The notes under the pieces were generated by a model that was not told the DNA's origin, made no database searches, and saw only the letters and a list, made by a program, of their open reading frames with translations. This document shows, piece by piece, positions 6,630 through 22,125 of a DNA stretch of 64,000 nt; positions within the stretch are counted from its first letter, which is position 1, and each line of letters starts with the position of its first letter. The position numbers and the translations under genes were made by a program. The stretch spans positions 1 to 64,000 of the IMG/VR virus record IMGVR_UViG_3300046678_000974; one strand, given 5' to 3'. This stretch comes from a virus. Taxonomy: Duplodnaviria; Caudoviricetes.

Positions 6630-8381
6630 ATGCCAATTTTGCAATCTACTAACGTGAATCCAACGGCTCTGGTAGTCCCTGATCTGTATGTGGTCATTGT
6701 ACCGCCTGCTCAGTTGCTTCTTAACGGCGTTCCATCGAATGTTGTTGGTCTGGTGGGAACTGCCAGTTATGGTCCGGTGAATACGCCGGTGTTGGTTCAA
6801 GGCATGGCTGAATACAGCCAAAACTTTGGACCATTGCTCAATCGCAAATACGATATGGGTACCCATGCGGCTGTCGTTTCGCTGCAAGGTGCCACTGCGA
6901 TGCAGTGCGTTAGGGTAACCGATGGTACTGATGTTGCTTCCTCAGTTGTGGTTGGCAGCACTGATATTACCTTTACGGCCAAGTATACCGGCACCTATGG
7001 TAACAACATCTCTGTCACTTTGCAGAATGGTGCTAAGGCGAATACGATTGCTGCGGTTGTCGGTGTGCCGGGATACGCGGCTGAAATCTATCAGAATATT
7101 CCCAAGGCAGCTTCCACGACCGCGACAACCACTGGTTCGATCTCAACTGCTACCACGGTACCAGTCGATTCGACTGCGTCTTTGGTGGTCGGTATGGTGG
7201 TGTCTGGGACTGGCGTTGTTTCGGCGCCGACGGTCGCGTCGATTACCGATCCTACCCATTTTGTCCTATCATCCTCACAGAGCATTGGTTCTGGTGTGGT
7301 GTTGACCTTTACGCCGACCAATTTCAATTCCACCTGGGTGGCATTGGCGGCAGCGGTCAATAACGGCCAGAATGCATTGAGACAGCCTTCTATTTGGGTG
7401 ACGGCTGTCGCTGGTGGTGGTACTACTATTCCTTCACTGCCTGCGGTTTATCAGTTGGTGGGTGGTGGTGATGGTGTTGGCACGATCACTGCGACTGTTT
7501 TGACGGGTGACAGTTCGGTTCCGAGTGGCATGTATGCCTTGTCGAACTTGAATGTCGCCATTCTTGATTGCTGCGATGTTGATGATTCGACAGCGTGGAC
7601 GACAATCGATGCATTTGCCATTGGCAATTCGAGTTATGCCATTCAGGTAATTCCATCTGGTACGACAGTAACCAACGCGGTTACTGCCAAGCGTACTGCT
7701 GGACTGGATAGCGCCTATTCGAAACTCCTCCATGGTGACTGGCTCTATTGGGACGATCCAGTAACGGGTGTGACCCGTTTGGTGTCGCCGCAGGCATTTG
7801 TGGCTGGTCGTTTGGCCAATCTGTCTCCGCAGAATGTGACGCTGAATAAGCCGATCTTTGGTATAGCAGGGTCACAGAAGACAGGAATCTCGGGGATCAA
7901 TCAGACTGCGTATACGACTGCTGATTTGACTTCGTTGTTCCAGAGCGGTATTGACGTGGTTACTCTCCCCGGTGCAGGTGGATTCAATATCTGGACGTGT
8001 CGTAGTGGGCATACCAGCAGCACGAATCTCACGTTACAGTTGGATAACTATCCGACATTGACCAACTATATCGCAAAGACGCTCGCAAGTGGCATGGGTT
8101 TTTATATTGGTGAGGTGATTACGCCGCAGTTGTTCTTCAATGTGACGGCGACGCTTAGTCAATTCATGCAGAACCTGACTGGTGCTGGTCTGTTGGCGAC
8201 GACTGATGGAACGACTCCTTACGCTGTTCAATGCAATGTGCAGAACAATCCGCCTTCACAAACCAAGATTGGTATTGTTACGGCGACAGTTCAGGCGGTC
8301 TACCCCTCCATAAATAGCACCTTCATAGTCAACCTTCAAGGCGGCAGTACTGTTACGGTTACTGTTCAGAATCAAGGATAA
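6630..8381 (+). CDS. contractile tail sheath protein
   Basis: N-terminal VVPDLYVVIVPP...GTASYGPVNTP, SPQAFVAGRLANLSP, and C-terminal F+VNLQGG are typical of sheath proteins. Confidence 0.9.
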   Translation: MPILQSTNVNPTALVVPDLYVVIVPPAQLLLNGVPSNVVGLVGTASYGPVNTPVLVQGMAEYSQNFGPLLNRKYDMGTHAAVVSLQGATAMQCVRVTDGTDVASSVVVGSTDITFTAKYTGTYGNNISVTLQNGAKANTIAAVVGVPGYAAEIYQNIPKAASTTATTTGSISTATTVPVDSTASLVVGMVVSGTGVVSAPTVASITDPTHFVLSSSQSIGSGVVLTFTPTNFNSTWVALAAAVNNGQNALRQPSIWVTAVAGGGTTIPSLPAVYQLVGGGDGVGTITATVLTGDSSVPSGMYALSNLNVAILDCCDVDDSTAWTTIDAFAIGNSSYAIQVIPSGTTVTNAVTAKRTAGLDSAYSKLLHGDWLYWDDPVTGVTRLVSPQAFVAGRLANLSPQNVTLNKPIFGIAGSQKTGISGINQTAYTTADLTSLFQSGIDVVTLPGAGGFNIWTCRSGHTSSTNLTLQLDNYPTLTNYIAKTLASGMGFYIGEVITPQLFFNVTATLSQFMQNLTGAGLLATTDGTTPYAVQCNVQNNPPSQTKIGIVTATVQAVYPSINSTFIVNLQGGSTVTVTVQNQG

Positions 8382-8387
8382 TTTTAG

Positions 8388-8876
8388 ATGGGCATTAATG
8401 CAACGACTGCTGGATTCACCAACACCGGGCACGATCTTCACATCGCTTTGGTAAATGCTGACGGCACTACTATTGCGCTGGAAAATGTTATGCAATTCGA
8501 CGCCAAGCAGGAAACACAGGATGTCACACGTGTTCGTCTCGACAACCGTGTGCTGGTTGCTGATCTCCCGAAGCTTTGGTCTGGTACGATCACCTATGAT
8601 CGTGGCCGGGGCAATGTCGATAATGGAATTGCGGAGATTGAGCAGTCATGGTTCAGCGGTAAAGATTATGCGCTAGGTCGGCTAGAAATCTCTGTGTCTT
8701 CATCTTCTGGCGCCGGTGGTGTCACCAATATCGCGTTCCTTGATGTCAGTCTCAAACAGACTGATTCTGGCACGTGGCGTGGTGATGATGCCACTTCGTG
8801 TCGTTTGGAGTTTCGCGCAGCACGTCGATCGGTCAATGGCGTTGGCGTTGGGAATAATTCGTTCTTCGTGACTTGA
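8388..8876 (+). CDS. tail tube protein
   Basis: 162 aa directly after the sheath; FDAKQ...WSGTITYDRG pattern. Confidence 0.8.
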   Translation: MGINATTAGFTNTGHDLHIALVNADGTTIALENVMQFDAKQETQDVTRVRLDNRVLVADLPKLWSGTITYDRGRGNVDNGIAEIEQSWFSGKDYALGRLEISVSSSSGAGGVTNIAFLDVSLKQTDSGTWRGDDATSCRLEFRAARRSVNGVGVGNNSFFVT

Positions 8877-8899: not shown

Positions 8900-8905
8900 T
8901 AAATA
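8900..8905 (+). promoter_or_regulatory. TAAATA box in loop of an 8-bp inverted repeat
   Basis: AGAGGTTG-CTAAATAC-CAACCTCT (8891-8914), upstream of the chaperone gene. Confidence 0.55.
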
Positions 8906-8924
8906 CCAACCTCTAGAAGGTGAT

Positions 8925-9290
8925 ATGATGTCAAACAAGCCGACGATTGAGACGCTCGAAACGTCTTTTGTGAAAGAATCCAATCCTGTTCGCACGGTCA
9001 CTGACGCCAGTGGCCGTGTGATTCGTTATAAGAACCTCAGCATCATGGAACGTGCCCGATTGGCGCGAGTGTTGGCTGAGCATTCCAATAATGGGCCGTA
9101 TTATGGCATGTTGGCGACAGCGGCGGCGGTGATCGACATTGATGGTGAAGCTGGGCCACCGAAGACCAAGATCAGTTTCCTCGAAGGGCGTCTGGAATGG
9201 TTGGGCGACGATGGCTGGGATGCCATTATTGCTGACGATCGGATGCGCAATGAAGTTGAGGAAAATGAGAAGGTCGCAATAAAAAACTAG
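8925..9290 (+). CDS. tail assembly chaperone
   Basis: Lies between tube and tape measure; ends ATA AAA AAC TAG. Confidence 0.8.
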   Translation: MMSNKPTIETLETSFVKESNPVRTVTDASGRVIRYKNLSIMERARLARVLAEHSNNGPYYGMLATAAAVIDIDGEAGPPKTKISFLEGRLEWLGDDGWDAIIADDRMRNEVEENEKVAIKN

Positions 9291-9466
9291 CAACGGATTC
9301 AGCGTTGGGCGTTGCCCTTTACCTTGTATCGAAGGGCATTCCTTGGGACGTGGTGTTCGCGCTGGATTCGGTTGAATTGACAGCTTTTCAGATCATTTTT
9401 GGCCAACAACAGGGTGGTATCTGGGAGTGGGACAATATGCGTTGGCGCCCTAATGAGTATAAGTAA
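9281..9466 (+). CDS. -1 frameshift extension of the tail assembly chaperone (G/GT-type)
   Basis: Slippery heptamer A AAA AAC at 9281-9287. The -1 frame stays open for 59 codons (LATDSALGVALYLVSKGIPWDVVF...WEWDNMRW) to TAA 9464-9466 and has no convincing independent start. Confidence 0.85.
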   Translation, partial: KKLATDSALGVALYLVSKGIPWDVVFALDSVELTAFQIIFGQQQGGIWEWDNMRWRPNEYK

Positions 9467-9469
9467 GCG

Positions 9470-9877
9470 ATGAACATCGCTCAAGTCTTGCAACAACTCG
9501 AACAACGCATCCGCATCGCTGCTGAAGCTGGATTGGTGGAAGCTGCTGAACTGGTGAAACAGGAAGCCAAGAATTGGATCGGCCATCAGCATTCTGACTG
9601 GCCGCCATTATCTGAGAGTACGATCGAAGAAGAGCAACGTATGGGCTATCCTGTGGATCAGCCATTGTTGCGTACTGGTGCATTGCGAGACAGCATTGAG
9701 GCTCATGTGGTAGGCTTGCATGCTGAGGTGGGTACCAATCATCCATTGGGAGTGATTCACGAGTATGGGACGGTGACGATCCCACCACGTCCGTTCCTCC
9801 AACCAGCGTTGACCGCCAAGACCAATGAGATTGGGATGATCCTGCGTCGCCATATTGCTGCGGCATTAAAGGGTTGA
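9470..9877 (+). CDS. HK97 gp10-like / virion morphogenesis protein
   Basis: WPPLSESTI, LLRTGALRDSI, HEYGT..IPPRPFLQPA motifs. Confidence 0.8.
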   Translation: MNIAQVLQQLEQRIRIAAEAGLVEAAELVKQEAKNWIGHQHSDWPPLSESTIEEEQRMGYPVDQPLLRTGALRDSIEAHVVGLHAEVGTNHPLGVIHEYGTVTIPPRPFLQPALTAKTNEIGMILRRHIAAALKG

Positions 9878-9918
9878 CAGATTGATCTGTCTGGCCTAGG
9901 ACGCTCTTGGAGGTGATC

Positions 9919-10419
9919 ATGAAGAAGTTGCTTTTGTCGATGCTGTGTCTGTTGCCGATCGCGGCGCAGGCGAAGTCTGATCCCAATGAATGTGGCAAGA
10001 CGTTGGGCTGTGTGGTGGTCAACCAGTGGGACCCTTGGCACGGTTACAGTCAGATTCTGATGGTGCCGAAAGACCCGGCAGATGCGCCGCCCAATCGGCC
10101 ACGCCCGAGTTCGATTACCCGATCGCCCAATGATATGCGGCCAGAGCGTGGCACGGTGAAGCAGACTGACTTTGATAGTCCATTGGCACAACAGCTTGCT
10201 GGGATTAATCGGCAGCAGGAAGAACAGCGGCAGGTATCTGTCACGACGATGTGGTGTCAGAAGCGTCCTGATGGTAGTTACATCACTACACAGGAAGCGA
10301 TCCCGCCGGGTGTGCAATACTGGAAGGTGACCAATTTTGCGCCAAATGGCAAGACCAATATCGATAATTGGCGAGAGGGAACTTGCACGATTCATCCTTT
10401 AAGTCAACCTCCCCACTGA
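9919..10419 (+). CDS. secreted protein of unknown function sharing a 32-aa segment with the tape measure protein
   Basis: GGAGGT RBS; signal peptide MKKLLLSMLCLLPIAAQA with an A-X-A cleavage site; internal duplication described under findings. Confidence 0.7.
   Translation: MKKLLLSMLCLLPIAAQAKSDPNECGKTLGCVVVNQWDPWHGYSQILMVPKDPADAPPNRPRPSSITRSPNDMRPERGTVKQTDFDSPLAQQLAGINRQQEEQRQVSVTTMWCQKRPDGSYITTQEAIPPGVQYWKVTNFAPNGKTNIDNWREGTCTIHPLSQPPH
10114..10209 (+). repeat. 96-nt dispersed repeat, second copy at 12928-13023
   Basis: 89/96 nt identical, aligned by hand; all 7 differences fall at codon position 3. Confidence 0.95.
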
Positions 10420-10423
10420 GGGG

Positions 10424-10429
10424 TAAATA
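10424..10429 (+). promoter_or_regulatory. TAAATA box for tape measure gene
   Basis: Directly 5' of a terminator hairpin, so the predicted +1 falls inside the stem. Confidence 0.6.
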
Positions 10430-10431
10430 TT

Positions 10432-10455
10432 GGGAGGCGAAAGCCTTCCTTTTTT
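10432..10455 (+). terminator. intrinsic terminator
   Basis: GGGAGGC-GAAA-GCCTTCC followed by T6. Confidence 0.8.
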
Positions 10456-10467
10456 GTGAGTTGATGC

Positions 10468-13400
10468 ATGGCAATTGGTCAAGGTGGTAGTCTCGGCGGT
10501 CTGAATCTTCCCGTCGGTATTAATATCAATCTAACAGGTCAACAACAGTTGACCGATCTTGCTAAAGCGCTTGATGCGATCAATCAGATGATCGTTTTGA
10601 CCCAACGCAATTTCCAATCTCTTAGCAATACGATTCGCAACATGCCGACAATTCCGACTGGATTGAGTGGTGCATCAACCTCGGGTGCTACAGCGGCTAA
10701 TGTGACAGCCAATCGCAAATATCGCGATGAGCGAGGATTGGGTGAGTTCGAAGAGGCTAGTCGGAACAAGATACAGAGAACTTATGTAGCAGCCGGAAAG
10801 GAAAATGAGAGATTTGATGCTACCAAATATATCAATGAGCGTGGATTAGCTGAGTTCGAAGAAAGTAGTCGGAACAAGATACTAAGGAATGAGGAGCGCC
10901 TTCACAGAGAACATCAACGTGTCATTCAGGGAGAGATCGACGCACGTCAAAAATCTATAGATGGTTTCAAGAATGGCATCATGGGGGGTCTTGGTGTCAC
11001 GGCGGCTCTAGGTGTCTCTGAACTTGTCCGCACTGGCATCCATGCGGTTGGTAAGTTGGATGAACGTATCGCAGCAATGCGATTAACTGGTCATTCAGAG
11101 GAAGAGATCGACCGCACTAGGATGGCGGCGGCCCGAACTCCCGTGCATGGGGTCAACATGGCTGAACGACTGTTTTTGGGCCAAGAGATTTCTGGAATCT
11201 TAGGCAAGGAAGCATCAGCAGAGACGTCGCGCAATATCGCTATTTTGGCACGTTCTACCGCACGCATTACCGGTCAATCAGGTGATATTACAGGGGCAAC
11301 ACGCAATTTACTACGCGGTGCTGATGCGTTTGGAAATATCCACAATCCAAAAACTGGCCAACTTGATGAAGATTTGTTCAACAAGAACGCGCTAGCATTC
11401 CAGAAAATGATTGCTCTGGGTCAGGGGATTTTCACCCCACAAACCTTGATGCATAATGCTCGAATGGCGACACAGCCTTTACAGGCATTGGATATTGCTA
11501 ACAACCCTCGTGCTATGGCGCGATTTGCAGTATTGAATGAGAGCTTGGGCGAGAGAGCCGGTGAAACATTGAATAGTGTGTTTCGCGCTATGACTACACC
11601 GATGGAATTGAGTAAGAAAGGTGCGGGAATATTAGAACAACACGGTTTGCTTAACACAAGCAATATCATGGCAACCCCTAATCTTCAGGGTGGTAACGCC
11701 AGATTGTTCCTACAAGATGCAATTAAAGGCAACGGTAATTTCCTTGATAAAGCTATTGAAGTTGCTCAAAAGCTTACGCAGGATACCAAAAGACTACATC
11801 CTGAGTTTACAGAAAATAAGATTGCCGAAGAGGTTGGTGGTCTTATCAATACAGTATTTGGCGGTCAAGGTGGTGGAGTTCGTTTTGGTCGTGCCATGGC
11901 TGATCTTGCCACTCCAACAGGGATAGACAAAACAGAAAGATTTGAACGGCGAGCCGCCATACTTGGCAACAATGCGGATGATATCGATCGGGCCAGTCGT
12001 AATTTCAATGATAGTCTGATGGCGGTGAAAGCCTCTTTTGAAGATTTGGTTGGTTCATTTGCTAAGGTTGGTGGTCTGACCAATGCGTTGTATGGCTTTG
12101 CTGACGCAATGTCGCGGATGGCATTATTTCTCAATGAACATCCAAAGATCGCCCAATTTGCTTCTGACATTGCATTGGTCATTGCTGCATTGTTGGGACT
12201 GCGTCTGGCCATTGCTGCCTTGGTTCGTCTACCGGGGCTGGCGCGGTTTGCGATTGGATCGACATTTGCTGGTGCAACGGCAGGTTCTGTGGCGGCCTCG
12301 ACAGCAGCAGGTACAGCCGCAACGGTTGCAGGCGGGGCTGCTTTGGGTGCGCGTGTAGCTGGCAGTGGCGCCGGTGCGATTGGTTCGGCGTCGGCTGAAG
12401 CAGCTTTGGCGGGGGCTAGCGGGGGCCTATTGGCTCGTGGCGCGAACGCTGCACAAGGCATTAAAGCGGCTGGCATGGGTGGCGTGGTCAATCGTGGTCT
12501 GATGGGTTTCTTGATCACTGGGGTTGCTTCAGCGGCAGTGGACGGCATCACAGATGAGAACTCTGGTACCAATGAATTAATGAAGAATGCCTTGGAAGGT
12601 GCTGGTATCGGTTATGCTGTAGGTGGTCTGTGGGGTGCATTGATCGGTGCTTTAGCTGATGTCACTTTGAAAGCAGCGCATAAAGGTCTGACCAAGAGCA
12701 TGATCGAGAAAGACGATTATGCCAAACAGCATCCCGATGAAACCTTTGTCGATCCGATTAGTGGCATCGCCGTCACCGGTTTGAAGAACCGTGACGTGCA
12801 TCCACCGGCACCATTCAATCAAGCGGACGAGGATGTCCGCGAACACGCAGTACAAAATCGTATTGCAGGAACAACAGAGACGACTACCGCTGTTAGCGCT
12901 CGGGTGAATGCACCTCGTGTCTCGCGGATCACCCGATCACCCAATGATATGCGGCCAGAGCGTGGCACAGTGAAGCAGACTGATTTTGATAGTCCATTGG
13001 CACATCAGCTTGCTGGTATCAATCAAACCCAACAGCAACAGCAGACGGCCAATGCCTTCCGTCAACAGGGCATCACGCCACAGACAATTCCAATGCCTGC
13101 TGGTGTATCAGAGATACCCGGTGTGGGCAAGCCGACAGGGCCGCTTATCCCCGCGATCAAGATCGATACCATGAACGTGGACACCTTGAATGTAAGGATG
13201 TTTGGTAGCACAGGTGGTGGGGCTGGTGCAGGAAAAGGCGGAGGTGGTGGTGGTGTTTCAAGTGGAGCACCAATTGATGCTCAGAAAAATGGTACAGGTA
13301 TTGCGCTTACTTCGGCACAAGGAGGATTGGCTGGACATACGATTGGTGGCAATTTGCCTGCCGGAGGATTTCATGGCGGTGGTCATAGTGGCGTTATGTC

Positions 13401-14181
13401 ACCAGCCACTGGGGGCGTTGGTTCGATTCCCACATCAAATGCGCCTGTCAAGCCACTATCCACTGCCGAACAGAAAAGATTGCAAAACGAATCGATGCAA
13501 TTTTGGCAGACAGAAGGAGGTTTGAATAAACACCGAGCGGCTGGTATGACCGCACAGGAACGCGCTGAATCTGGATTTAATAAGAATGCGATTGGCGATA
13601 GTGGTTTAGCCAGAGGTTCTTTCCAATGGCATCCGGATCGGCAAAGGGCCATTCTGGCTGGCACCGGTATCGATGTGACCAGTCCGAATACAACTCATCT
13701 CCAAATGCTGCAAGCAGCGCATTGGGAAATGACAAAAGGTAAGGAACAAAAAGCATGGGCTGAAATTAATAAGACGAACACAGCACGGGAATCGGGCGCG
13801 GCAGGTTCGTTGTTCTACGAACGTCCGAGAGATCGGATTGGTGAGGCTAGTCGGCGTGGTGCTTTGGCGACATCGATTGAAAACGAGACACCGAATATGG
13901 GGGCACCATTAGGTCTCGGTGCGACAACACCCATGGATCGAGATAAAGCGATGTCTTCGCCCAATATCCAAGGCCCACGAGTCAATCCTGAACAAGGTGA
14001 TGTACCCGCGAACAATATGCATTTGACAATCCATAGTCCTAACTACTTGGATGGCGAACGTATCAGCGAGCATGTGGCGCATCATATCATTGGTGGTGGC
14101 CCTACTGCGATGGGTGGTTCGACGGCGTTTGATCCCAGAATGCATCCGATGGGGCCGGGAGCCTCGATTGGTAGGTTCTAA
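10468..14181 (+). CDS. tape measure protein with C-terminal phage-tail-lysozyme domain
   Basis: 1237 aa with an Ala/Gly-rich helical core and a hydrophobic stretch. The C-terminal AAGMTAQERAESGFNKNAIGDSGLARGSFQWHPDRQ fits phage tail lysozyme. Confidence 0.9.
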   Translation: MAIGQGGSLGGLNLPVGININLTGQQQLTDLAKALDAINQMIVLTQRNFQSLSNTIRNMPTIPTGLSGASTSGATAANVTANRKYRDERGLGEFEEASRNKIQRTYVAAGKENERFDATKYINERGLAEFEESSRNKILRNEERLHREHQRVIQGEIDARQKSIDGFKNGIMGGLGVTAALGVSELVRTGIHAVGKLDERIAAMRLTGHSEEEIDRTRMAAARTPVHGVNMAERLFLGQEISGILGKEASAETSRNIAILARSTARITGQSGDITGATRNLLRGADAFGNIHNPKTGQLDEDLFNKNALAFQKMIALGQGIFTPQTLMHNARMATQPLQALDIANNPRAMARFAVLNESLGERAGETLNSVFRAMTTPMELSKKGAGILEQHGLLNTSNIMATPNLQGGNARLFLQDAIKGNGNFLDKAIEVAQKLTQDTKRLHPEFTENKIAEEVGGLINTVFGGQGGGVRFGRAMADLATPTGIDKTERFERRAAILGNNADDIDRASRNFNDSLMAVKASFEDLVGSFAKVGGLTNALYGFADAMSRMALFLNEHPKIAQFASDIALVIAALLGLRLAIAALVRLPGLARFAIGSTFAGATAGSVAASTAAGTAATVAGGAALGARVAGSGAGAIGSASAEAALAGASGGLLARGANAAQGIKAAGMGGVVNRGLMGFLITGVASAAVDGITDENSGTNELMKNALEGAGIGYAVGGLWGALIGALADVTLKAAHKGLTKSMIEKDDYAKQHPDETFVDPISGIAVTGLKNRDVHPPAPFNQADEDVREHAVQNRIAGTTETTTAVSARVNAPRVSRITRSPNDMRPERGTVKQTDFDSPLAHQLAGINQTQQQQQTANAFRQQGITPQTIPMPAGVSEIPGVGKPTGPLIPAIKIDTMNVDTLNVRMFGSTGGGAGAGKGGGGGGVSSGAPIDAQKNGTGIALTSAQGGLAGHTIGGNLPAGGFHGGGHSGVMSPATGGVGSIPTSNAPVKPLSTAEQKRLQNESMQFWQTEGGLNKHRAAGMTAQERAESGFNKNAIGDSGLARGSFQWHPDRQRAILAGTGIDVTSPNTTHLQMLQAAHWEMTKGKEQKAWAEINKTNTARESGAAGSLFYERPRDRIGEASRRGALATSIENETPNMGAPLGLGATTPMDRDKAMSSPNIQGPRVNPEQGDVPANNMHLTIHSPNYLDGERISEHVAHHIIGGGPTAMGGSTAFDPRMHPMGPGASIGRF

Positions 14182-14188
14182 ATAATCG

Positions 14189-14668
14189 ATGCCCCTCGTA
14201 ACATCCCAACCCGATCCGATTCTGGTGATCACTGGACCATCGGGTAGTATCACCTTCGGTGGCTTTGAAATCCCAGAGTTCATTCATGTGGGTGGGCCAT
14301 TTCGGGCAATCGTTCATAAGCAGCCGGGTGGCACAAGACAGATCGATTCGATGGGACCTGATCCTGATCCGATCAAATGGGATGGAATATTCCTCTCGGC
14401 TGATGGCTATACACGCGCCCGTGCTTTGTATGCCATGTATGAAGCTGGTGATAAGGTCACAGTGAAATGGACTGGTTGGTCGCGGGATTGTGTAATCACT
14501 CACTTCACGTTACGTTATAAAGCAAATAATTATGTTGAATATGCCATCGAATTGACCGAAGTGACTGTCATTCCAACCGGCGTGTTGATCGGTGTTGATC
14601 AATCGACTCTTCAAGGATTGCTGAAAGGTGCAAGCAATGTACCAAGCGGTGGTGGTGGTCTGGGATGA
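14189..14668 (+). CDS. tail tube initiator / P2 gpU-like protein
   Basis: Follows the tape measure; FEIPEFI..GG..R.IVHKQPGG.RQIDSMGPD pattern. TAAATA at 14179 lies 4 nt before the ATG. Confidence 0.7.
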   Translation: MPLVTSQPDPILVITGPSGSITFGGFEIPEFIHVGGPFRAIVHKQPGGTRQIDSMGPDPDPIKWDGIFLSADGYTRARALYAMYEAGDKVTVKWTGWSRDCVITHFTLRYKANNYVEYAIELTEVTVIPTGVLIGVDQSTLQGLLKGASNVPSGGGGLG

Positions 14669-22103: not shown

Positions 22104-22125
22104 TATTTACCCCTGAAGGTAAATA
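22104..22125. promoter_or_regulatory. back-to-back TAAATA boxes
   Basis: TATTTA at 22104-22109 (minus) and TAAATA at 22120-22125 (plus) between divergent genes. Confidence 0.6.

Follow-up and report, generated by a model that had tools for sequence, protein, structure and literature searches.

The first 64 kb (64,000 nucleotides; the window) of the complete 76,408-bp IMG/VR virus record IMGVR_UViG_3300046678_000974, a genome with 127-bp direct terminal repeats, contains two near-identical copies of a segment that encodes 32 residues. One copy lies in the tape-measure gene, and the other lies in ORF166, a small open reading frame (ORF) of 166 codons immediately 5' of the tape-measure gene whose predicted product carries a signal peptide. 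This duplication is a real, statistically solid, and unusual feature of an orphan gene. From the sequence analysis described below we propose, as a possibility that falls short of an even chance, that ORF166 is exported, imitates a motif that the tape measure exposes in the periplasm, and so interferes with genome entry. The features needed to follow the argument, all of them in the tail module, are given here in window positions.

9919-10419, + strand: ORF166, predicted to encode a 166-residue exported orphan protein (a TTG codon at 9907 would give 170 residues)
10114-10209, + strand: copy A of the 32-residue segment, residues 66-97 of ORF166
10468-14181, + strand: tape measure, 1237 residues, with a C-terminal lysozyme-like domain (PHROG 9570, PF18013)
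12928-13023, + strand: copy B of the 32-residue segment, residues 821-852 of the tape measure

The original prediction had reported near-identical copies at these two positions, and alignment reproduced that observation. The copies are in frame in both ORFs and differ at 7 of 96 nucleotides (nt), with every difference at codon position 3; six of the changes are synonymous and the seventh replaces Q with H (CAA/CAT). When the whole 76.4-kb genome was compared with itself by BLAST, this pair (98 nt, 92.9% identity, E 9e-35) was one of very few internal repeats. Nei-Gojobori analysis of the pair (22.7 synonymous and 73.3 non-synonymous sites) gave a synonymous divergence (dS) of 0.33 and a non-synonymous divergence (dN) of 0.014, a ratio of 0.04. 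The probability of finding no more than one non-synonymous change among seven is 0.001 if both copies are neutral, and 0.015 if one copy is neutral and the other strictly constrained (0.008 when calculated by codon position). Purifying selection on the peptide is therefore supported when the copies are taken as a pair, and either copy considered alone is probably subject to it as well (P about 0.01-0.02 against a single neutral copy). The earlier claim that the peptide is under selection in both proteins thus stands for the pair and is reduced to a probability for either copy by itself.

An assembly artefact, which the original prediction had named as a way in which it could fail, was excluded. 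An independently assembled Logan contig of 12.5 kb (L004) is 100% identical across both copies, run X2 has separate contigs for the two copies, each extending into flanks found only there, and in run X3 copy B is joined to the unique sequence upstream of it. It is accordingly extremely unlikely that the segment is an assembly chimera or sits in a non-coding ORF. The orphan status of ORF166 and the greater length of an overlapping antisense ORF (212 residues) would fit that explanation, but it was tested and rejected on the identical sequence in separately assembled contigs of other runs, on codon statistics that favor only the + frame, and on the homologue of the ORF166 C-terminal domain found in another metagenome. 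In the codon model the ORF166 frame scored -4.11, against -4.61 and -4.48, and the + frame was preferred in all three sub-regions of the gene; the antisense ORF showed no frame preference. A strong ribosome-binding site (GGAGG, 9909-9913) lies 5 nt before the ATG at 9919, and the third-position pattern of the differences between the copies fits the ORF166 frame. From these coding signatures, we conclude that ORF166 is a real gene.

Other kinds of repeat were also considered. A diversity-generating retroelement, with its template and variable repeats, was rejected, as copy A has an A at one of the seven differing sites and copy B at two, so the mismatches do not fall at adenines. No reverse transcriptase was matched among the proteins scanned, a search that did not extend to the whole genome. 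An explanation at the RNA level was set aside as well, since the two copies fold no better than shuffled sequences (z 0.75 and 0.13) and fold unlike each other; no Rfam family was found in the window. Deletion between the repeats would give an in-frame fusion of the signal peptide to the lysozyme-like domain, and the run contigs, which cannot show rare forms, contain no such joint. A read-through fusion of ORF166 to the tape measure was also rejected; the two genes share a frame, but two in-frame TGA codons (10417 and 10462) lie between them.

Outside the segment, ORF166 is made up of the following parts, with a Gln-rich linker between the copied segment and the C-terminal domain; P0005 is a relative that is described further below.

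9919-9972, + strand: Sec-type signal peptide of 18 residues, with predicted cleavage between AQA and K (by inspection and hydropathy)
9973-10113, + strand: N-terminal extension of the mature protein, 47 residues with two Cys, without relatives and absent from P0005
10243-10416, + strand: conserved C-terminal domain of about 57 residues with two conserved Cys, 57-58% identical to P0005 residues 17-75 (E 3.5e-17)

The placement of copy A in an ORF with a signal peptide, as first described, was upheld by inspection: a charged n-region (MKK) is followed by a 13-residue hydrophobic core (Kyte-Doolittle maximum 2.66 at residue 4, window 11) and by small residues at -3 and -1 that form an AXA site. 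Hydropathy revealed no hydrophobic stretch beyond the signal peptide (maximum 1.14; none after residue 20), so that ORF166 has the features of a Sec-exported periplasmic protein, and we infer that it reaches the periplasm. It does not have those of a bacterial lipoprotein, in that the only Cys of the signal peptide is preceded by S-M-L and there is no lipobox. The mature protein contains four Cys, at positions 25, 31, 113, and 156. Comparison of ORF166 with Pfam, NCBIfam, and PADLOC gave no match, and comparison with PHROG none that was informative; a sequence search against solved structures returned only chance-level matches or de novo designs. The AlphaFold2 model of ORF166 is unusable, with a mean predicted local distance difference test (pLDDT) value of 42, and the ESM Atlas model is equally poor. 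The ESM Atlas neighbors of ORF166 and P0005 are DUF4124 proteins (cosine 0.82, template modeling score 0.31-0.51), a group of small periplasmic proteins of Pseudomonadota. Hidden Markov model searches do not confirm this resemblance; neither ORF166, its C-terminal domain, nor P0005 matched the DUF4124 profile (PF13511) even at E 10, and the resemblance is no more than a lead.

The second copy lies in a protein whose assignment as the tape measure rests on PHROG 9570 (E 2e-23), gene order, a hydrophobic region, and the PF18013 domain. Its parts are as follows.

Residues 84-138: N-terminal part with a 36-residue tandem repeat
Up to about residue 558: helical core
12142-12672, + strand: hydrophobic Gly/Ala-rich region, residues ~559-735 (by hydropathy and composition)
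Residues 736-1000: low-complexity linker rich in Gln, Pro, and Gly, containing the segment at 821-852
13492-13878, + strand: lysozyme-like domain, residues 1009-1137 (PF18013, E 1.6e-12)
Residues ~1138-1237: tail of ~100 residues

The tandem repeat in the N-terminal part comes from a 59-nt repeat at 10716-10774 and 10824-10882 (85% identical) that gives two 36-residue units with an ERGL.EFEE.SRNKI motif. Tandem repeats in tape measures are a known route to a change in tail length.

Copy B falls after the hydrophobic region and ~150 residues N-terminal of the lysozyme-like domain, which agrees with the first description of it as lying between the helical core and that domain. In the AlphaFold2 model its first 22 residues are disordered (pLDDT about 30), and its last 10 residues start a lone helix (843-866, pLDDT 55-60) that is not packed on the lysozyme-like domain. 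That domain is modeled with pLDDT 82-95, and its best match among solved structures is the tail cell-wall-degrading enzyme gp13 of phi29 (E 0.01, probability 1.00), followed by MltE-type transglycosylases. Because it combines a disordered start with a lone, unpacked helix in this model, and is strongly conserved inside low-complexity disordered sequence, the segment looks like a short linear motif of the kind that depends on a partner. Other phages with long or contractile tails push this end of the tape measure out into the periplasm, where it opens the wall and forms a channel (T4: bioRxiv 10.64898/2026.03.06.709160); such expulsion is also described for HK97 and lambda in work cited in PMC13190303. 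A faint likeness ('APRV..SP..PE..PL') that MAFFT placed upstream of the lysozyme domain of the protein P0003 was not supported by BLASTP and was discarded.

These features suggest how the two copies might act together. ORF166 would be an accessory protein sent to the periplasm, in which a signal peptide is followed by an orphan extension, the copied peptide, the Gln-rich linker, and a small C-terminal domain held by disulfide bonds. The tape-measure peptide, whose disordered linker joins the membrane-inserting region to the lysozyme-like domain, would be expelled into the same compartment during infection. Since an exported protein and a periplasm-exposed linker would then display the same peptide in one compartment, the most economical reading is that they share a binding partner, with the exported copy having the same binding specificity as the tape-measure motif. 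ORF166 might in this way interfere with the tape-measure-dependent genome delivery of later-arriving phages of the same type: it might tie up the motif's partner in the envelope, or it might pair with the same motif on the tape measure that is coming in. The first of these routes is the superinfection-exclusion decoy suggested in the original prediction, with which several of these features agree. The more specific claim, that the exported copy blocks later phages of the same type because it saturates the envelope partner or co-assembles with the incoming tape measure, is a somewhat doubtful one. That both copies would be present in the periplasm, that either would bind there, and that exclusion would follow are steps that we infer from the arrangement of the two proteins.

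Pairing of the two proteins was also modeled. The predicted complex of ORF166 residues 19-166 with tape-measure residues 800-1237 scored 0.60 (three runs, 0.59-0.67), compared with 0.01 for the best of three controls. In calibration, 58 of the 80 solved complexes and 2 of the 110 mismatched pairs reached the mark for a pass; scores of 0.60 or below, however, occurred in only 7 of the 80 and in both of the mismatches that passed. Agreement between the runs is at least 22% of contacts, the pLDDT of the partner is at least 54, and no interface was reported. This result gives a weak push towards direct contact between ORF166 and the tape measure and does not amount to a finding.

Several observations count against the proposal that ORF166 interferes with entry by mimicry, beginning with this score, which may reflect the model pairing two near-identical segments. 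A second is the form of the duplication. The 30-90 nt on either side of the copies are 31-47% identical, which is the chance level, so that the similarity breaks off sharply at both edges of a short patch. An older and larger duplication of which only a conserved core survives is not the explanation, because neutral flanks of equal age (dS 0.33) would have stayed ~75% identical. The main rival explanation, which is unlikely but has to be weighed closely, is that 96-98 nt of a tape-measure gene were pasted in frame into ORF166 by recombination and tolerated there, with no function shared between the two proteins and with the C-terminal domain doing the work of ORF166. The sharp edges fit such an event, as does the position of the segment in a predicted-disordered region beside the Gln-rich linker, where insertions are easily tolerated. 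The G+C content at third codon positions of copy A (0.47) is also nearer to that of the tape measure (0.42) than to that of the rest of ORF166 (0.54-0.66).

The selection test bears on this rival in two ways. For a patch that originated in this genome, neutrality of the ORF166 copy is disfavored (P 0.008-0.015). If the source was instead another phage with a diverged tape-measure allele, as it may have been, all seven third-position differences could have arisen under tape-measure constraint before the transfer; they would then provide no evidence of selection in ORF166, and the patch would escape the test. Neither a donor allele nor a second carrier of the segment was found in 1.84 billion representative proteins or in viral contigs. 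The missing donor speaks against a recombination patch, and the missing second carrier speaks against mimicry. A degenerate DNA pattern for the motif likewise found no further locus in viral, metagenome, or genome contigs. It also tells against a tolerated patch that the insertion is in frame, brings no stop codon, and stands in a gene that looks intact in other respects. Separately, a ~530-nt contig (535 nt) in soil runs X1 and X2 contains the first 18-24 nt of the segment twice, inverted and ~43 nt apart; the match begins exactly at the 5' edge of the patch (window 10110-10133 and 12928-12945) and is followed by unrelated sequence. This contig, which was not found among viral contigs, could reflect chance or a short sequence prone to recombination.

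The one relative of ORF166 bears on both explanations. An exhaustive HMMER search of the 1.84 billion representative proteins returned three meaningful matches, namely ORF166 itself, its own tape measure (through the segment), and P0005; the N-terminal extension of ORF166 had no relatives in this search, and two further candidates (P0006 and P0007) were repetitive eukaryote-like proteins and were dismissed as spurious. P0005 has 79 residues, with a signal peptide joined directly to the C-terminal domain and with both Cys conserved. It has neither the N-terminal extension nor the copied segment, so that ORF166 exceeds it by ~92 residues (the extension, the segment, and the Gln-rich linker), and the family evidently works without the segment, which fits a recombination patch and counts against mimicry. 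The P0005 gene lies on a 944-bp soil contig (L005) immediately 5' of the start of a homologous tape-measure gene. The tape-measure fragment on this contig is clearly conserved over its first 24 residues and is 27% identical over 172 residues, and the contig ends before the possible motif region. Because the P0005 gene also adjoins a tape-measure start, the ORF166 family appears from this comparison to be tied by position to the tape-measure gene, with the C-terminal domain as its conserved unit; this positional link counts in favor of a role at the tape-measure step.

Further searches added no member to the family. Nothing matched ORF166 or the region 8900-14200 when 50,697 phage records were searched by tblastn and blastn. 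In a word-indexed search of 5.8 billion proteins, ORF166 and P0005 each matched only themselves, and the tape measure matched only relatives of its lysozyme domain. Scans of viral, metagenome, and genome contigs with ORF166, an alignment of the C-terminal domain, and aligned tape-measure N termini found no further locus; the metagenome scan missed L005, so short contigs were not covered.

The transcription signals around ORF166 also weigh on the question, and two of them lie between this gene and the tape-measure gene.

10424-10429, + strand: TAAATA promoter-like box, between the ORF166 stop and the tape-measure start
10432-10455, + strand: terminator-like hairpin of 7 pairs with a GAAA loop, followed by T6, directly 3' of the ORF166 stop (-12.8 kcal/mol, z -1.67)

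In the genome, 26 of the 41 occurrences of TAAATA lie no more than 80 nt 5' of a gene start on the same strand, where ~2 would be expected. This distribution suggests that TAAATA is a phage-specific promoter element, with some genes leaderless or having a short leader. Examples are found at 1547, 4330, 8900, 10424, 14179, 42836, and 51366 on the + strand and at 22109, 30757, 35980, and 56617 on the - strand, and several of the boxes are only 5-16 nt before the start codon. No TAAATA box precedes ORF166, the nearest one upstream being at 8900. There is a perfect TTGACA at 9874-9879, and the hexamer 17 nt downstream of it is TAGGAC (3 of 6 positions). With a poor -10 hexamer and no TAAATA box, a promoter of its own for ORF166 is doubtful. 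Most simply, ORF166 seems to be the last gene of a tail-gene unit that spans 8900-10455, an arrangement that does not favor an exclusion gene. The tape-measure gene would restart from its own box, and from the spacing the 5' arm of the hairpin would lie at the expected transcript start, so that only transcripts from upstream would hold the full hairpin.

When considered as a moron, ORF166 has a terminator and occupies a slot between the tail completion gene (Neck1) and the tape-measure gene that varies among phages, and its promoter is doubtful for the reasons just given. No tyrosine or serine recombinase is present in the complete genome, so that ORF166 is not a classic prophage moron; this, too, fits poorly with exclusion.

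Apparent co-transcription with the tail genes fits a second rival explanation, itself rather improbable, in which the motif recruits a host periplasmic factor (a chaperone, protease, or cell-wall enzyme) for the phage's own cycle and not for exclusion. The factor might process or activate the tape-measure lysozyme at entry and, late in infection, ORF166 as a helper in lysis or egress; alternatively, ORF166 might regulate the phage's own tail lysozyme in the manner of Spackle. Besides the apparent co-transcription of ORF166, which has no TAAATA box of its own, the distance of ~150 residues between the motif and the lysozyme domain fits such a role, and the weak complex score (0.60, with a best control of 0.01) would also allow contact between ORF166 and the lysozyme-containing part of the tape measure. 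There is a precedent in HK97, whose entry needs a periplasmic chaperone and an inner-membrane protein acting with the tape measure (Cumby 2015, as cited in PMC13190303). On the other hand, ORF166 resembles none of the spanins, holins, or endolysins, nor Spackle; the gene is absent from cultured relatives that have the same tail module; and the complex prediction reported no interface.

The original prediction had also raised the idea that ORF166 is a decoy against a host defense that senses the tape measure. Such sensing has some basis, as SNIPE associates with the tape measures of lambda and Bas14 during injection (PMC13190303). A decoy of this kind is nonetheless very unlikely, since it fails on both timing and compartment. 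ORF166 would be made only after DNA entry, too late to shield the tape measure that came with that DNA, and its predicted location is the periplasm, whereas sensors of newly made structural proteins are cytoplasmic; in addition, no PADLOC model matched.

Interference with entry by mimicry can be compared with several known systems. Imm of T4 is located in the inner membrane, acts in superinfection exclusion, and binds gp29, the T4 tape measure (bioRxiv 10.64898/2026.03.06.709160). T4 Spackle inhibits the gp5 tail lysozyme in the periplasm (PMC7677548), and Ltp of the Streptococcus thermophilus phage TP-J34 is a surface lipoprotein that targets the tape measure (Bebeacua 2013, as cited in PMC3952083). 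By analogy, these three proteins may serve as precedents for envelope exclusion proteins that act at the step of the tape measure or tail lysozyme, and none of them involves mimicry.

The likeness to each of them is partial. As with T4 Imm and HK97 gp15, ORF166 would be a phage-encoded envelope protein whose proposed target is genome translocation mediated by the tape measure of a phage with a contractile or long tail. Imm and gp15 are integral membrane proteins that do not resemble their tape measures, whereas in ORF166 there is just a cleavable signal peptide and, without any sequence similarity to either protein, a literal copy of a tape-measure peptide; the lack of a hydrophobic stretch after residue 20 and of any Pfam, PHROG, or NCBIfam match separates it from proteins of this type. 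Spackle, from a virulent myovirus, is also a small exported protein in a system whose tail tip delivers a lysozyme domain. ORF166 has the export signal and, with the tape measure, the weak complex score of 0.60 without a reported interface, but it has no sequence similarity to Spackle, which is encoded by an early gene and not in a tail-gene unit. Ltp likewise is exported and has as its target, as proposed for ORF166, the tape measure of incoming phages. It is a lipoprotein with helix-turn-helix-like repeat domains that is expressed from a prophage in a Gram-positive host, whereas ORF166 has no lipobox and no similarity to Ltp and belongs to a phage without an integrase.

The genomic context of ORF166 is comparable to that of the sim (superimmunity) locus of P1, which lies directly 5' of the pmgC-tub-pmgB-sit operon, sit being the tape-measure gene. 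SimA, SimB, and SimC all have signal-peptide-like N termini, as does ORF166. In canonical P1 there is no significant similarity or shared motif between the Sim proteins and Sit, and ORF166 has no similarity to the Sim proteins. In retroviral Env receptor interference, a virus-derived copy of an entry protein in the infected cell blocks the entry route of later viruses; here the analogy is one of logic only, as the kingdom and the proteins differ. To our knowledge, tape-measure mimicry has not been described in print, and a literature search found no report of it. As a reasoned hypothesis based on these comparisons, ORF166 would be a variant of the envelope-located phage proteins that act at the tape-measure step, and it would represent a new mechanism among them if mimicry were confirmed.

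Little is understood of how tape measures get across the periplasm and open the inner membrane, and their host partners have been identified in only a few model phages. When a short motif is kept in a tape measure and also in an exported accessory protein, as here, it is a candidate site of partner binding. If mimicry is correct, the copied motif would point to a functionally critical, partner-binding part of tape measures that are otherwise unalignable, and exported tape-measure copies would be a signature by which exclusion genes and entry-critical motifs could be recognized from sequence in uncultured phages.

The phage that carries ORF166 is a novel contractile-tailed phage of a poorly sampled lineage, and it was detected in rhizosphere and soil metagenome runs. 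Its tail genes follow the order sheath, tube, chaperone-like gene, Neck1, ORF166, tape measure, and baseplate genes. Those upstream of ORF166 are located as follows.

6630-8381: sheath
8388-8876: tube
8925-9290: chaperone-like gene
9470-9877, + strand: tail completion protein, Neck1 (PHROGs 222, 26, and 5; PF05069), directly 5' of ORF166

Sheath proteins of Ralstonia phages (genus Rahariannevirus) and of the Komagataeibacter phages phiKX1 and phiKX2 are 46-50% identical to the one encoded here, Neck1 is 32-34% identical to that of Ralstonia phage Hyacinthe and Komagataeibacter phage phiKX1, and the baseplate genes, like those for the sheath and Neck1, are common to Hyacinthe and phiKX1. Because of this kinship of the tail module, the host is probably a Gram-negative proteobacterium of soil or rhizosphere. 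A 53-codon ORF in the -1 frame (9305-9466) follows the chaperone-like gene, which is the usual layout for the programmed frameshift of tail assembly chaperones.

The ORF166 gene is missing from both Hyacinthe and phiKX1, which share these tail-module genes. In phiKX1 there is nothing between Neck1 and the tape-measure gene, and in Hyacinthe this position holds a small gene on the opposite strand (L008 12028-12285, - strand) whose product, a membrane protein, has a C-terminal hydrophobic segment. By this comparison, the position between Neck1 and the tape measure is a variable accessory slot, and it seems to collect envelope-directed accessory genes. The same lysozyme domain is present in the tape measure of an unrelated viral contig, where the gene for a 98-residue signal-peptide protein runs convergently and abuts the tape-measure stop (L003 6762-7058, - strand).

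Several other repeats are found in the genome. The 5' part of the first gene is repeated near the right end (genome positions 1-464 and 74024-74490, 89% identity), and the region before the terminal repeat is duplicated (73924-74150 and 76182-76408, 93%); these duplications near both ends correspond to paralogous glycanase-like genes that flank the genome ends. Beyond the window, a direct repeat of ~100 nt (64185-64285 and 64995-65092, 95% identity) lies among small ORFs and is of a size class like that of the tape-measure patch. Also beyond the window, genome positions 70622-71242 (- strand) encode a 206-residue protein in which a CHASE3 sensor domain (PF05227, E 4.5e-25) is clear; the ORF contains no output domain.

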